64,000 bases of DNA. Origin: Phyllosticta citribraziliensis. Its lineage: Eukaryota. The stretch is taken from contig NW_027117345.1 of NCBI RefSeq assembly GCF_038025025.1, positions 124,001 to 188,000 on the forward strand. Direction: 5' to 3'. Shown one piece after another: positions 26,599 through 34,731 of this stretch (its first letter is position 1; every line of letters starts with the position of its first letter). The position numbers and the translations under genes are program-made. The notes under the pieces are model-generated. The model saw nothing but the letters and a program-made list of their open reading frames with translations. It had not been told where the DNA came from and ran no database searches.

Positions 26599-29500
26599 TC
26601 AATCGGGGCCAAAGAGATCGATGCCCAATTGAACTCCGTAACGATCGCCCCAAGAATTAACGATATATTCTTCGAACTCTTCGATACCCCTTGTCCAGTC
26701 CTGCTTGGAACCAGGCGTTGAAGATGCATCGGAAACTTCATTACGAGATTGAGCTTCTCGATCCCACGGGAACTTGTCGAACTCAGGGAGCATTTGCAAG
26801 ACGCGTGTCCTGCCGAACTTCTCGGCCAGCCCTCTCGCAGTCAAGCCTCGCACATCTCTGGCATCAACATCCGCGCCATGGCTCAAGAGGATCTCGACAA
26901 CTTCGGTGTCATCGCGGACAGCAGCTTGGTGTAGGGGCGTCATCAGCAGCCAGTCCCTGGCAGAGACGTCAGCTCCTCGTTCCAGGAGTAATCGGACAAT
27001 CTTGGGATGCTGCCTATTTGCGGCCTTATGGGTAGTTACGTTAACAGCCCGTTGGAGTGGCGTGTTCTCTTTCTTGTTGCGAACGTTCACATCGGCCCCG
27101 TTTTCCAGAAGTATCTGCACCATTTCCAAGTCTAGATTGCCTGTAGCCACGTGCAGCGGAGTGTTTGCGAGTTCGTTGCAATCATTGACTCGAGCACCTT
27201 TCTCCAGTAGTGCCCGGACAATCTTAACATTTGGCTTTCGACTAACGACAGCTTCGATAAGCCGCGTATTGGTTGTCGATGGATCTGTGCCGTTGGCATC
27301 GGCGCCGTTTTCCAACAGGACTTGGACGAATGTTGTGTTGGAATAATATATTCCCAACCAAAGCGGCGTATACCCATCTCTGTCGGACATGTTCACTCTG
27401 GCGCCATGAGCTATGATTGCTTTGGCGATCTGAGCGCCAGACCTTAGGTCCTGGCTGCACAGATATAGAGCATTTCTTCTCAGCATTGTGTCTATCCAGC
27501 TGATTTTAAAGTCTGGGCCTAGAAGTCGATGTGCCAAGTCCAAGGTAATGTTGACAACGCCTTGAACAAGCGTCCTTGGATTGGCGCGCCCGTCCGTAGC
27601 ATCCAGTGACTTCATGATTCTCTCGATGCCAGCCTGAAGTTTGGAGTACAACTTCTCAAAAGCTTCCACATCTTCCACCTTTTTCTGGACGAGGCTCAAC
27701 TCTAGAGCTTCGTTTAAAATGACAGAGAGTTGAAGAATACGTTTTCGCAGTATGATAACCAAATCCCGCTCATCCTCGATCGTGTCTAACGGAGCCAGCA
27801 AAAACTCCAAGTTCGTGCAAATTTCGCGTTTGACAGGCGCGTGAGGATCCTGCGCTGAAGATTTTGCAATTTCATGGGAAATGCAGTCCAAGTGGATGCC
27901 GTAGTAGAGCATCTTCTCCACCATTGAAAAGTTTTTCGACCTGATTGCGATGTCCATAAAGCGGTGTTGCTGTTGGCCACTGATTCCTGGTACCTTCAGC
28001 TGTTCATGCTCAGTCAGGCCGAAAGCATCAAGAGTCCATATTACATGATTTGCGACTACAGCCTGAAATGTGAGGTTTTCAGAATGTGTTGGAATGCCAC
28101 TCAGGTGGATTTGACTAGTGCCTATCGCCGTGTGGAAACCCTGGAAACCAGGCGATATCTCCGAGCCTTCGAAGACGAAGTCCATAATTAGAGATTTTAG
28201 AGGCTCTGATGACTTCAGGTCGCCGCTAGATGAGACGTGGTCAATTAAGAAGAAGATGTAATGGTTTTCCCATTCCCGTTCCCGTTCGTCTCTATTCATG
28301 ATGGTTCGGGGTTCGCCTGCTGATTCTAACGCCTCTTGATTCATGAGACGTTTCATGTGACGTGATTCCCGCATCAGACACAATGACGCAACGCGAGCGT
28401 TCGCCTGGGGAGCGAGAAATTCCGTGCTTTTGCTTTTTGACAGTGAATTTTCAAGGAATTCCCGCACTGACAAGTGCGCAAATCGGATTGTACTATCCTT
28501 GTCCTTTTCGACAAGGTTCAGACAAACTCGAAGTATTTCATCTCCTGTGTACGGCTCGTCCGAGTCTTCCAAGTCAGTGGAAGCAAGGAATGCAAACAGT
28601 TCCAGGTTGACTTTGCGATGCGCGCAAAGTAGCCATTGGAAGGTTGTGGTTGCAAGCTTCTCTGCGTTTTCGCCCAGCCTTTTGATCTGTTCAAAAACGT
28701 CCCAATAAGACTTTTCCAAGGTTTCTGGGAGATGGCCCAGTTTGGCCTTAATGTCTCTTGGATCCTCACATCTTCGCAACATTTGGATTTGGAGCTCGAC
28801 CCATCGGAACATGCCATTGGCGCCATTAATGAGAGTCTTGATTACTTCTTCTCGGAGAGCAGCTCGCTTTGGCCCCTTGAGGCCTCTTACAACACGAATA
28901 TTTTCGAGTCTATTCATAATGTTAGCAAGACAGTTTTGCGGGCCAAGAAAGCAATTGTTGACCTACACAAAAGCCTCGATATCGTTTGAGTTGTCTTGGG
29001 CATCAATGCGAAGACTTGGGTGGTCCTCTAGCTGCTCATTGATTTCGCCGCTGTCTCTGCTCGAAAAGAAAATTTTGACGACTCCTCTTGACTCTCGCAT
29101 AATCTTGATCAGAGCCTCAAGGAGGTCGCTAACCTCAGACTGCCTCATTTCGTCAAGCGCATCCAACACCAGAACTGTTGACGCATGGAAACTGGTCAAG
29201 TCAATAAGGGCCCGAGTGCTCTCCTCGATGTCCCAGGTAACGTCTTCATAGCGCTCGGAGCCGTCGATGGCCTCCAAATATCGGAGTCGGATGGTGTCAA
29301 ACACGATTCTCTTGTCGGCACATGCCAGCTGTTCAACCAAAGATGCAAGAATAGGCTGTGCCATGGCGCGTTCTGGCTCGGCAGGATTCCTGACACAGTA
29401 AAAGAAGGCCAATCTTTCATCTCGCATGCTATCAATCACGAGCGAGGTAAGCTTGGTTTTCCCAGATCCGGGGATGCCACGAAGCCAGAGGATGGACGAA

Positions 29501-32799: not shown

Positions 32800-33360
32800 G
32801 CATTTGCCGTGCGCTCAGTCGTAGGTCGGAGTTGGTCGGGCCGGTCAACCTCAACACCATGAAGCTGCATCCGGTGCAAAGACAAACCTGCGCAACTTCT
32901 CTGGCCGATAGATTCAACAGCGTTCTCCAATCGGTTTTGTGGCAAGTTGAAGGCCAGGCGTGTTCGGGGTTGGGTGTCCAGGCGCAGAGACAGGCTCAAC
33001 ACCATGACCTCCATCGTGAGATCGACTGCATGAGCAGGCCCCAGCGTAAAGTCGATTTTTGGCAGTCAGGTAGATGAAACAGCTGGCTTAAGCCCACCAA
33101 AGAGGCTTTGCATGGCGCTGGAAGGTATGAGAGGGTGGTCGAGGTTGCGTGTTTTGGCGCAGGGTGACCTCAACACCATGACTTGCATCGCGATGTCGAG
33201 CCTCAGCAAGCATCAGCGTAAAAGTTTTGGCAGCCTTGCAGCCAATGCGGCCAACTGGAGCTCACCAAAATGGCTTTGTGTTGGCATTGGCGGCAGGTCG
33301 CAAGCAGGCGCCGTCGTGGCAGGCGTCCGGGCTAAGTGCCAGCTCAACACCACGAAAAGG
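32800..33360 (-). repeat. Degenerate tandem repeat array with ~174-bp period
   Basis: CTCAACACCA(T/C)GA at 32850, 32995, 33169 and 33343 (spacings 145, 174, 174); CAGCGTAAA...TTTTGGCAG at 33042 and 33214. Confidence 0.7.
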
Positions 33361-33574
33361 CGCACGACGAGCAAACACCAGAGCTTGAGCGGCCTCAAAG
33401 CTGCTTGGGTATGATATTAGCAAGTAGGCGTCTTCCGCAGCCAAAGCCCAAGATTCGACGTCCACGGGCGCGAAAACACCAAGAAGGCCACGACTTCGAC
33501 CATCGACCGCGCCACGCCACCACCGCCCGCGACCCAAGCTATATATACCCAAATAACGGATCCAAAAAGCAACA

Positions 33575-33876
33575 TTGAGAGAGCCGGGCGAGTCACATCC
33601 GTGAGCGAACTCTCTGTAGACCAGGCTGGCGTGGTTAAGATGGACCTGGGGTTTAAAACACCCCATACCCCGTTCTAACGCCTCGGGAGCGGCTCACCGC
33701 ACACTCAGTTACCTGGCGCCAATAAACCCGAGTTCGACTCTCGGTCCCGACAATGCGACATATTCCAAACGCAATCACTCTCTGAGTAAGTGCGGACCTT
33801 ATGATCAAAGGGAGGGCTGGGCTCCACGTTGTGGTGGCCCTGATCCTGCGTCAGGTTCGAACTGACGCACTTTTTT
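33575..33876 (+). ncRNA. Candidate structured Pol III-type non-coding RNA, or tRNA-derived element, of unknown class
   Basis: TATATATA 33540-33547; A-box-like TGGTTAAGATGG 33632-33643; B-box/T-arm CCGAG-TTCGACT-CTCGG 33728-33744; several helices; terminal 8-bp hairpin TGCGTCAG/CTGACGCA followed by TTTTTT 33871-33876; no credible ORF. Confidence 0.55.
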
Positions 33877-33979
33877 GATCTTTTTCGAGCCGTTTCTTTT
33901 TGCTATTTCTCGTCTCGTTGACTGGCGGCTCGTTTGCGGCGTCGCATGCGTTTTGCTGAATTGTCAAATCTTCCAGCGA

Positions 33980-34320
33980 CCTGGTGGTGTTGAAGTCAAT
34001 CAACCTCCTTCGAGGCACTTTCGCCCACCACTCTCGCCTGATGTCGGAGCAGAGGACGACGACACCTTCGGTATGGCGTCTGAGCCTTCGACATCAGCCA
34101 TACCGAAGTTAACCAGAAAGCCGCTCACCTTCGACAGCGCAACGGCCAAACCATTCAGCGGCCTGGAGGTGTTGAAGTCTCGAGGCACTTCCGCCCGCCA
34201 CTCTCGCTTGGGTGTTGGAGCAAAAGACGACAATCCCTTCAGTGTGGTACCCGAGTCTTGGAAATCAGCCATACCCAAGCTGAACAGAAAGCCGCTCACC
34301 TTTGACTGCACAAAGGTCGC
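33980..34320 (+). repeat. Direct duplication, two copies about 180 bp apart
   Basis: CCTGG(T/A)GGTGTTGAAGTC at 33980 and 34162. Both copies share TCGAGGCACTT..CCACTCTCGC and ATCAGCCATACC...AGAAAGCCGCTCACCTT (peptide SAIPKL.RKPLTFD twice). Confidence 0.8.
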
Positions 34321-34731
34321 TCACTCGCTCCGCCCAAAGCTCCGGAGGCACCGACATAGTTGAGCATCAAAAGAGATCGTGCCGCAAAACATCACTGCGT
34401 ACACAAAGATTGGCAAGCAGGCAGGAAAACGCAAGTCAAAGCCAACACGCCAACGACATTCGAAGTTCGCAAAACCAAGAAGACGCCGCATGCCTGGAAG
34501 ACCGCTCAGGGAAAGATTGTGACTCGATCTTTGGAAAGCGAGGACGCGAGCAAGTAGGGCCATGAAAAAGACGTTTGAAAGCAAGGTCGTTCTTGTAGGC
34601 AAAAGGACTCTCCAAACACGCGAAAGATCAAAGAAAAGACAAGCGGCAAGTCAGAACATGATCTGCCAAAGAGAAGGGCATCGCCATTCACTAACTATGC
34701 AAAGCACCACCCCATCCATCCACCGTCAACC

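Follow-up and report, generated by a model that had tools for sequence, protein, structure and literature searches.

A conserved structured RNA element, probably an undescribed small RNA gene, in an intergenic region of Phyllosticta citribraziliensis

The locus and its sequence features

The element analysed here is intergenic and lies in a 64-kb window (the whole stretch of DNA that was analysed) of contig NW_027117345.1 of Phyllosticta citribraziliensis, a filamentous ascomycete. Its conserved core is preceded by a candidate TATA box and followed by a cluster of T-runs, while a T/C-rich tract is found 3′ of the conserved block, which itself is located upstream of an open reading frame (34073-34360, ATG at 34073) without a relative among longer proteins. 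Inspection of the sequence recovered every motif and helix given in a preliminary description of this DNA, and these are listed below together with the structures predicted in the present analysis.

33540-33547, plus strand: candidate TATA box TATATATA, about 34 bases 5′ of the conserved edge
33578-33876, plus strand: predicted RNA and conserved core, about 295-299 nt, bounded by the TATA-directed start and T6
33578-33615, plus strand: predicted 5′ hairpin GAGAGA/UCUCUC with inner UCAC/GUGA; RNAalifold favours another pairing
33632-33643, plus strand: A-box-like sequence TGGTTAAGATGG
33634-33679, plus strand: irregular long hairpin (H2) whose stem comprises 4 bp, 5 bp (33639-43/33670-74) and 5-6 bp (33647-52/33660-65) and encloses a 7-nt loop
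33647-33665, plus strand: anticodon-arm-like hairpin TGGGGT/ACCCCA, seen in the sequence
33683-33750, plus strand: tRNA-like cloverleaf in the RNAalifold consensus, with a 6-bp acceptor-like stem (33683-88/33745-50), a 4-bp arm (33689-92/33697-700), a second 4-bp arm enclosing a 4-nt loop (33705-08/33713-16) and a T-arm (33728-32/33740-44, loop UUCGACU)
33683-88/33745-50, plus strand: acceptor-like TCGGGA/TCCCGA, seen in the sequence
33697-708/33782-95, plus strand: 6+6 bp helix of the preliminary description, seen as complementarity in the sequence
33728-33744, plus strand: T-arm-like CCGAG-TTCGACT-CTCGG, seen in the sequence
33729-33739, plus strand: B-box-like GAGTTCGACTC within the T-arm, judged against the B-box consensus
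33754-33773, plus strand: short UGCG/CGCA stem enclosing a 12-nt loop; RNAalifold pairs this region otherwise
33802-06 and 33841-45, plus strand: two TGATC sequences bracketing the hairpin at 33819-40
33813-33847, plus strand: hairpin of 33819-23/33836-40 and 33824-27/33831-34, with an extension 33813-18/33842-47
33847-33869, plus strand: 8-bp terminal hairpin whose GUUCGAA loop forms a second B-box-like sequence
33871-33901, plus strand: candidate Pol III terminator cluster of T6 (33871-76), T5 (33881-85) and T5 (33897-901)

Conservation and pairing in related fungi

Contigs from public sequencing runs of relatives (X1, X4, X5 and X7) were aligned to the window, with X1 covering the region from 33527 rightward, X5 that from 33430 rightward and X7 that left of about 33811; counts in the 3′ half of the element, like every count for X5 and X7, are lower bounds, with 94 further differences and 7 further indels beyond those listed. 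The alignments delimit a conserved island, from 33581 to about 33898, which is far better kept than the surrounding DNA. In X4 the locus is present as two diverged variants (contigs 3 and 4), which collapse to one shared contig across 33581-33717, and this contig differs from the window by seven substitutions and two one-base deletions, all inside 33640-33674. The more diverged variant (contig 4) carries 17 differences in the 88 bases of 33493-33580 (19%) and none in the 59 bases of 33581-33639, and left of 33493 it has 139 window bases swapped for 147 unlike bases. On the 3′ side, contig 7 of X4 (33688-34135) shows 52 substitutions and 29 gap letters. At least five of the substitutions and one inserted base precede 33877, while the remaining 28 gap letters are at or beyond 33899; the listed differences of the diverged variant start again at 33899/33902. 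Compared to a few per cent within the element, the flanks of this variant are about 19% or more different. A contig of X7, a run labelled with a different organism, matches the window from 33579 on, with 65 unlike bases 5′ of that position.

Since the X4 and X5 flanks can be aligned with those of the window, the locus is orthologous, and its conservation pattern supports the view that the element is under purifying selection in these related filamentous ascomycetes. A protein-coding reading was rejected, because the two one-base deletions in X4 shift every reading frame and relatives have lost the ATG found at 33640.

The fold energy of the element is no better than chance. On the plus strand the minimum free energy is -105.4 kcal/mol compared to -98.3 ± 4.9 for shuffled sequences (z -1.43), with 9 of 100 shuffles folding as well, and the minus strand gives a z of -1.33. 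Moreover, four 9-bp and six 8-bp alternative perfect stems are available in the sequence, so that a list of helices is by itself little proof of structure.

The substitutions in relatives speak more directly to pairing. Among the differences listed, 13 places are substituted, seven of them in predicted pairs, and all seven keep a standard pair on the plus strand, whereas on the minus strand 33640 and 33756 give mismatches, and 33843 would do so in one of two alternative pairings. A double change, 33649 G>C with 33663 C>G, turns a G-C into a C-G pair in X4, X5 and X7, although these relatives are close and one compensatory event has possibly been counted in several of them. Within H2, the changes 33640 A>G, 33672 G>A and 33674 T>C also keep their pairs on the plus strand, the helix 33639-43/33670-74 having been spotted only once the substitutions were known, and the X4 form of this hairpin, with two one-base deletions and two loop changes, still gives a 5-bp stem and a 7-nt loop. 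Further 3′, 33756 C>T changes C-G to U-G on the plus strand (an A-C mismatch on the minus strand), 33843 A>G converts the C-A mismatch 33817-33843 to C-G or, in an alternative GAUC/GAUC pairing, U-A to U-G, and 33835 T>A falls at a bulge. Taken as comparative sequence evidence, these changes support a structured RNA element on the plus strand, and in particular the hairpin 33647-65 and its extension.

The cloverleaf at 33683-33750 has three listed changes (33703 deleted, 33718 G>A and a C inserted after 33726), all in linkers, and the comparison is compatible with the tRNA-like minihelix. The 5′ hairpin at 33578-33615 is the most conserved part of the element; as 33581-33639 is identical in the window and both X4 variants, no variation bears on its pairing. 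The terminal hairpin 33847-69 is likewise a predicted pairing, and X4 and X5 show no listed change there. In contrast, the 12-bp crossing helix (33697-708/33782-95), which had been put forward as a pseudoknot or alternative fold, found no support in the comparison: 33787 T>A breaks the pair 33703-33787 in the second X4 variant, X5 and X7, and X7 also lacks base 33703, the partner of 33787. With a pair lost in three relatives, and with the alternative cloverleaf placing the three listed changes of 33683-33750 in linkers, the pseudoknot is unsupported.

The block might also be conserved as DNA, either as an extra TFIIIC-bound site or boundary element or as a dense module in the promoter of the gene that follows, derived from decayed tRNA gene remnants. 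The two B-box-like sequences at 33729-39 and 33854-64, without a listed change in any covering contig, would fit this explanation, as would a third, weaker copy of the motif at 33491-33514 and the position of the block 5′ of the open reading frame and followed by the T/C-rich tract. However, about 300 bases with roughly 2% change outside one hairpin greatly exceed the needs of protein-binding sites, and pair-keeping substitutions, one of them double, on one strand only are not predicted by constraint at the DNA level. We therefore regard conservation as DNA as unlikely.

Searches for known RNA families

No match to Rfam was obtained at gathering score in the whole 64-kb window, nor at E≤10 for 33400-34000, and the search of 33570-33880 at E≤10 returned two chance-level matches (E 6.6 and 9.4). 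These were to Rothia-sucC (13 bits compared to a gathering score of 64.5) and psbNH (9.8 compared to 45), and both were discarded. The signatures of SRP RNA and RNase P/MRP RNA had not been found in the preliminary description, and neither family is among the Rfam matches (4227 models) at E≤10 in either interval; no significant match places the element in any other Rfam family. Signatures of U1, U2, U3, U6, 7SK, snR30 and C/D and H/ACA snoRNAs, judged by eye, gave nothing convincing, and a telomerase RNA template (a CCCTAA 9-mer or 8-mer) was found neither in the window nor near the element. A metagenome scan with a 23-base core motif gave no matches. Three metagenome loci (L001-L003), picked up with two motifs and a gap, proved unrelated on alignment, as the searched motifs alone match. 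In the literature searched, no paper contained a 21-base core string, and none on Pol III ncRNAs of filamentous fungi describes the element. We consider it a candidate ncRNA gene of no described family.

That the element does not fold as a normal tRNA, as previously suggested, was borne out: ARAGORN found no tRNA in the window by default and none in 33500-33950 with introns allowed, and the Rfam tRNA model had no match at E≤10. Only with the threshold relaxed to 80% and introns allowed did ARAGORN build a tRNA-Leu(taa) at 33625-33752, a poor model in which the acceptor stem has two mismatches and the intron spans 58 bases. Such a model, together with the tRNA-like pieces (a canonical-looking T-arm and an acceptor-like stem), could point to a functionless copy of a tRNA-derived SINE or to a decaying, possibly dimeric, tRNA pseudogene, and the several core variants that X7 shows at unequal depths could mean several copies. 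A 5′ stretch of the element also resembles the D-arm of a class II tRNA. Yet the anticodon stem of the ARAGORN model clashes with the covarying pair 33649-33663, and the locus is orthologous and several-fold better conserved than its X4 and X5 flanks. The element occurs once in the window, where the next best blastn match is 19 bases long (E 0.21), no flanking direct repeats that could represent a target-site duplication surround it, and it ends in a hairpin and T6 instead of an A-rich or simple-repeat tail. The earlier suggestion of a tRNA-derived SINE thus conflicts with the single copy in the window, the lack of direct repeats, the alignable flanks and the better conservation compared to these flanks, and we find a SINE or pseudogene origin very unlikely. 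The fungal tRNA-derived SINEs Mg-SINE and Foxy are, like the element, a few hundred bases long and contain a B box in a tRNA-related part. The element differs in being single-copy in the window, in lacking a target-site duplication and a tail, in its orthologous flanks in relatives and in being under purifying selection.

A very divergent SRP, RNase P or RNase MRP RNA may have been missed by the Rfam models. Short stretches of the element presumably resemble the 5′ end of human 7SL. According to PMC4605306, covariance searches can miss fungal SRP RNAs, and the size, likely purine start and U-run end of the element are alike; SRP RNA, as described there, is about 280-300 nt long, transcribed by Pol III (predicted here), poly-U-ended and encoded by a single intergenic gene. 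Against a universal family of this kind stand the 4227 models without a match at E≤10, apart from the two unrelated chance hits, and the absence of long end-to-end pairing: the RNAalifold consensus pairs just 3 bp between the 5′ and 3′ ends, where SRP RNA would have helix 5. The AGCA-type helix 8 motif was not present in 33578-33876, nor was an RNase P/MRP P4 strand of the GGAAAGUC or AAAGUC type visible in the element. Unusual features of the SRP S-domain are, by PMC4605306, not found in Ascomycota, the group to which the window appears to belong, which argues further against a divergent SRP RNA. Unlike SRP RNA, then, the element lacks an Rfam SRP match, an end-to-end helix 5 and a helix 8 signature, and we judge a missed member of these universal families highly improbable.

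A ribozyme-like RNA had also been proposed, and the helix order of the element does invite comparison with HDV-like ribozymes, which are abundant as variants in fungi (230 representatives in 26 species, PMC5640933). If 33683-33795 were such a self-cleaving RNA, cleaving 5′ of 33683, P1 would be 33683-88/33745-50, P2 33697-708/33782-95, P3 33728-32/33740-44 and P4 33754-57/33770-73, and the strand order P1-P2-P3-P1′-P4-P2′ is indeed that of a nested double pseudoknot. However, the P2-P3 connector, which has zero length in the general consensus and one extra nucleotide in the fungal variant (PMC5640933), is here a linker of 19 bases (33709-33727), which contradicts the family definition. Furthermore, P3 has 5 bp compared to the 3 bp usual in this family, three relatives have a broken pair in P2 and no HDV-type model of Rfam matched. 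Thus, while the four-helix order is that of the fungal HDV-like ribozymes (PMC5640933), the 19-base linker, the long P3 and the unkept P2 leave self-cleavage of this type exceedingly improbable.

Predicted transcription and relation to known systems

The promoter and terminator signals around the element are uncommon in the window, and transcription by Pol III is plausible. The TATA-like TATATATA occurs once in the 64-kb window, and its spacing from the conserved block, which begins at about 33579-81 and provides a candidate start, fits a Pol III gene; in relatives, changes are listed at 33550 and 33553, just 3′ of it, and none inside 33540-47. From +33 of the TATA box no T4 occurs for about 297 bases, up to T6, which is the first T-run of four or more and has two T5 runs behind it; the plus strand of the window contains 13 runs of T6 or longer. 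While the A-box-like stretch (33626-43) is a weak match and variable (33640 A>G in relatives), both B-box-like sequences (33729-39 and 33854-64) are good by eye compared to the consensus and are without a listed change in relatives, in the case of 33729-39 across both X4 variants, X5 and X7. We infer Pol III use from the TATA spacing of about 34 bases to the conserved edge, the T4-free interior, T6 with the two T5 runs and the invariant B-box-like T-arm.

The main alternative, which accommodates the conservation and the plus-strand structure equally well, is that the block is a structured domain in a longer Pol II transcript, either a 5′ leader of 500-650 nt belonging to the open reading frame with its ATG at 34073 or an ncRNA of about 600 nt. 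Such a domain could act in cis, in the control of translation, stability or processing, or the mature core could be cut from a precursor, and T6 would be a mere U-run, possibly paired with an upstream A5. The contigs of X1 (571 nt, 33527-34097) and X5 (650 nt, 33430-34037) span the TATA box, the element and the T-runs unbroken, and if they represent RNA, which is a guess, they begin 5′ of the TATA box and read through T6, which would suit a longer Pol II transcript better; at 33427-30 the X5 contig runs out in letters of a sequencing adapter, and therefore has no read path further left. In addition, 33555-69 can pair with 33880-94 (13 of 15 positions) or 33559-69 with 33870-80 (10 of 11), either of which would close the domain. 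However, the contigs of X1 and X5 give neither strand nor ends, and their left ends are about 100 bases apart. A Pol II transcript would also leave unexplained the sharp start of conservation at about 33579-81, some 34 bases past the sole TATATATA, and the T4-free block until T6. As for a leader, the downstream open reading frame has no relative among longer proteins and the DNA from 33899 to the ATG is indel-rich, and in an alignment by eye the 30 upstream letters shown for X7 seem to lack the A5 arm that would close the domain. We regard a Pol II domain as possible, if somewhat doubtful.

Our tentative preference is for a new structured ncRNA gene on the plus strand, with an embedded tRNA-like cloverleaf, probably transcribed by Pol III and with a predicted length of about 295 nt. 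Initiation would take place about 30 bases 3′ of the TATA box at 33540-47, Pol III may be assisted by tRNA-derived internal elements, one resembling an A box (near 33626-43) and the other, in the T-arm at 33729-39, a B box, and transcription would stop in T6 (33871-76), behind a stable hairpin. The predicted RNA would consist of an invariant 5′ domain (33578-33633), the long hairpin 33634-79, in which the sequence drifts while pairing is kept, the embedded cloverleaf (33683-33750) and two 3′ hairpins. As an acceptor/T-arm minihelix is the kind of structure recognised by RNase P and RNase Z, the transcript may possibly be cut, and we speculate that the primary transcript could give rise to two RNAs, about 105 nt long from its 5′ part and about 125 nt long from its 3′ part. 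The fuller proposal, a conserved, clade-wide Pol III RNA of filamentous ascomycetes in which the cloverleaf doubles as internal promoter and RNase P/RNase Z signal, releasing these two RNAs (the 5′ one invariant), is rather unlikely as it stands; such an RNA would constitute a new family with its own biogenesis route and, probably, a housekeeping function.

Pol III genes with tRNA-like leaders or internal promoters, and lineage-specific Pol III RNAs derived from tRNAs, are exemplified by RPR1 and SNR52 of S. cerevisiae, with their leaders, and by rodent BC1. The likeness extends to an upstream TATA box, internal tRNA-derived boxes, a T-run terminator, a length of 100-370 nt and a single-copy gene. 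Unlike in these systems, the tRNA-like part is not succeeded by a mature domain of RNase P or C/D snoRNA type, the cloverleaf is located in the middle of the RNA, the 5′ 100 nt are most conserved and the use of Pol III is predicted. Cleavage by RNase P and RNase Z steered by tRNA-like structures is known from MALAT1 mascRNA and from the tRNA-miRNA transcripts of gammaherpesviruses, with which the element shares a good acceptor/T-arm stack, a stunted anticodon arm, a location within a longer RNA, and hairpins and a U-run on the 3′ side. It differs from these in lacking an upstream triple helix and in having hairpins too short for microRNA precursors, and its cleavage is speculative.

To our knowledge, very few structured ncRNAs of filamentous fungi are known beyond the universal set, and a new RNA family would be gained with this island, which is sharply delimited, spans about 300 nt under selection for RNA structure and combines Pol III-type signals with a tRNA-like module in its interior. 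If the tRNA-like module were a processing signal, a mascRNA-type mechanism would be extended to fungi; if the element were instead a Pol II leader domain, fungi would gain, besides the TPP riboswitch, a rare example of a large conserved RNA structure that acts in cis. Intergenic ncRNAs of 220-350 nt that are conserved across species and belong to no class have been cloned and confirmed by northern blotting in Aspergillus, as reported in PMC2377427. By their description there, Afu-182, Afu-202 and Afu-309 of A. fumigatus resemble the element in being intergenic, in length, in conservation of sequence and predicted structure and in lacking a class. A known family may by now have been recognised for some of these RNAs.

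Transcription signals and conservation

The element, a block at ~33578-33876 on the + strand, is a conserved structured RNA element of no described family, and over all readings taken together we consider it likely to be a functional structured RNA made from this strand. On reading 33300-34100, all motifs and helices of the preliminary description were found in place.

Features of the element (sequence read over 33300-34100)
33540-47, +: TATATATA, candidate TATA box
~33578-33615, +: 5' hairpin
33632-43, +: TGGTTAAGATGG, A-box-like
33647-65, +: hairpin UGGGGU-UUAAAAC-ACCCCA
33683-88/33745-50, +: acceptor-like pairing UCGGGA/UCCCGA
33697-708/33782-95, +: helix of 6+6 bp
33728-44, +: T-arm-like CCGAG-UUCGACU-CUCGG, adjoining UCCCGA (33745-50)
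33819-40, +: hairpin between two UGAUC
33847-69, +: terminal 8-bp hairpin with GUUCGAA loop
33871-76, +: T6, followed by two T5 runs

A k-mer search across public sequencing data recovered the complete stretch from two runs with one organism label; a surface metagenome and runs with five other labels contained parts of it. Contigs of four runs (X1, X4, X5 and X7) were compared over 33200-34200 at ≥80% likeness; differences were counted among those listed, the numbers for the 3' half and for X5 and X7 being minimum values. In X4 the locus is present as two diverged variants, with upstream contigs 3 and 4 both ending at 33610, downstream contigs 6 and 7 both beginning at 33688, and one shared contig 5 (33581-33717) that differs from the window by seven substitutions and two 1-base deletions, every one within 33640-33674. 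Since these changes are so confined, all 17 differences seen in contig 4 (33493-33610) have to fall within 33493-33580 (19%), directly 3' of which 59 bases are identical; 5' of the diverged stretch, 147 unlike bases replace 139. Over 33688-34135, contig 7 shows 52 substitutions plus 29 gap letters, with at least five substitutions and one inserted C listed before 33877 and the remaining 28 gap letters all at 33899 or later. Short X7 contigs, from another organism label, match 33581-33798, and one has 65 unlike bases 5' of 33579. Conservation has a sharp 5' edge ~34 bases 3' of the TATA box, and the T6 with its back-up T5 runs coincides with the end of conservation. The X4 versions over 33200-34200 have depths of ~75-80 and ~120-128, strongly different flanks and an identical 33581-33717, and may represent two related genomes or haplotypes.

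In the 64-kb window TATATATA has a single occurrence, and the + strand carries 253 runs of at least T4, 13 of them T6 or longer; between +33 of the TATA box and the T6, ~297 bases are free of T4. The unique TATA box, the sharp edge, this T4-free interior, the terminal T-runs and the B-box-like T-arm, for which no change is listed in relatives, together make a coherent transcription unit. A TATA box of this type is, as far as is known, required by the 5S genes of Neurospora and by every Pol III gene of fission yeast. Our tentative first choice is an independent gene for a ~295-nt RNA with predicted Pol III transcription. The main rival, which we hold possible but rather unlikely, is a structured domain within a longer Pol II transcript. 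Should X1 and X5 be RNA, which is a guess, the X1 contig (33527-34097) and the X5 contig (33430-34037) would run across the TATA box and every T-run; adapter letters at 33427-30 terminate the latter. An upstream stretch containing A5 is also complementary to each of the three downstream T-runs, and its first pairing below could close the entire domain.

Pairings of the upstream stretch
33555-33569 with 33880-33894: 13 of 15 complementary
33559-69 with 33870-80: 10 of 11 complementary
33563-73 with 33892-902: 10 of 11 complementary

These pairings could be the closing stem of a longer transcript, or a chance match of A-runs to T-runs. A weaker third TTCGAC-type, B-box-like motif lies ~90 bases 5' of the element (33491-33514; 71% identity to 33729-33752 over 24 bases).

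Substitutions, strand and structure

Substitutions occur at 13 places in one or more relatives; seven of these fall in predicted pairs and all seven retain a standard pair on the + strand, the relatives being close, so that a single event may be counted in several of them.

Substitutions in predicted pairs (+ strand)
33649 G>C with 33663 C>G: G-C to C-G (X4, X5, X7)
33640 A>G: A-U to G-U, pair kept
33672 G>A: U-G to U-A, pair kept
33674 T>C: G-U to G-C, pair kept
33756 C>T: C-G to U-G, pair kept
33843 A>G: C-A to C-G, or U-A to U-G in an alternative pairing; standard pair results

On the - strand, an A-C mismatch would arise at 33640 and 33756, and at 33843 in one of two pairings, and helix 33639-43/33670-74, recognised only after the substitutions were seen, would have only three of five pairs in the window. 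That the element acts as DNA, for instance as an extra TFIIIC site, is improbable in our judgement. In X4, two substitutions and two deletions remodel the loop of hairpin 33647-65, and a 5-bp stem and 7-nt loop persist. At least nine listed events are concentrated in the long irregular hairpin 33634-79, which therefore behaves as a helix in which shape counts and sequence is free to vary; no change is seen in the 5' 59 bases of the element. The 12-bp long-range helix, suggested as a pseudoknot or alternative fold, was not supported, 33787 T>A breaking pair 33703-33787 in three relatives and 33703 being missing in X7. RNAalifold on the window and three rebuilt rows instead folded 33683-33750 as a cloverleaf with a 6-bp acceptor-like stem, two 4-bp arms and a 5-bp T-arm, and all three changes listed there (33703 deletion, 33718 G>A, C after 33726) lie in its linkers.

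The element's only ATG-led mini-ORF (12 codons, + strand, ATG 33640, stop 33676-78), inside the variable hairpin, is not conserved, because its ATG becomes GTG in all relatives compared. A coding element was ruled out, since the X4 indels shift every frame and this ATG is lost.

Known families and folding energy

The element belongs to none of the families tested. Rfam 15 gave no match in the entire window at gathering score and none at E≤10 over 33400-34000; over 33570-33880 there were two unrelated, chance-level matches, in line with the novelty suggested in the preliminary description. An SRP, RNase P or RNase MRP RNA that has diverged very far is very unlikely. At default settings ARAGORN reported neither a tRNA nor a tmRNA, and allowing introns changed nothing, which bears out "not a normal tRNA"; with introns and the threshold lowered to 80%, it gave a poor tRNA-Leu(taa) at 33625-33752 (58-base intron, two acceptor mismatches), whose anticodon stem is at odds with the comparative data. 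The suggested tRNA-derived SINE, or a tRNA pseudogene, is quite improbable: the 64-kb window holds no second copy, and no direct repeats were found flanking the element. Least probable is the ribozyme-like reading. The helix order P1-P2-P3-P1'-P4-P2' of an HDV-like ribozyme is present on paper, but the P2-P3 gap is 19 bases, against a connector of zero, or one in fungal variants, in the family as described in the accessible text of PMC5640933.

By folding energy alone the element is not above chance (+ strand MFE -105.4 kcal/mol; shuffled sequences -98.3 ± 4.9, z -1.43, with 9 of the 100 folding equally well), and the - strand is much alike (z -1.33). The hand-picked helices weigh little, because the GC-rich element offers many alternative perfect stems (four of 9 bp, six of 8 bp). 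More weight falls on the promoter and terminator signals than on folding.

Possible workings and surroundings

The element would be a lineage-specific ncRNA built from tRNA-like parts. The acceptor/T-arm minihelix could plausibly serve RNase P and RNase Z as a substrate, so that cleavage of the transcript might, speculatively, release an invariant 5' RNA plus a 3' RNA. In its presumed workings, the nearest counterparts of the element are Pol III genes whose promoter elements derive from tRNAs, together with tRNA-like processing signals carried inside longer RNAs. As a kind of finding, and by description only, it resembles conserved intergenic ncRNAs of 220-350 nt cloned from Aspergillus fumigatus and assigned no class in the accessible text of that report (PMC2377427).

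At 33673-33680 and 33784-33791 the element RNA also has a branch-point-like UUCUAAC and a 5'-splice-site-like GAGUAAGU, and it holds two copies of UCUCUG(U), complementary to the U6 ACAGAGA box; all are probably coincidence.

The ~3 kb holding the element contain no ORF with a Pfam match. Neighbouring ORFs have NUDIX, ankyrin/NLR-type, alpha/beta-hydrolase-like and E1 dehydrogenase domains, and the nearest clusters of the window's proteins are ascomycete, so that the window resembles DNA of a filamentous ascomycete.

Open reading frames
34073-34363, +: start MASEPS, direct internal repeat SAIPKLxRKPLTFD twice; no relative found among longer proteins
26599-28962, -: 787 aa, ankyrin repeats and GPI inositol-deacylase winged-helix domain

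Relatives carry many small indels at 34021-34052, directly 5' of the 34073 ATG. The architecture of the 787-aa frame is typical of fungal NLR-like proteins.
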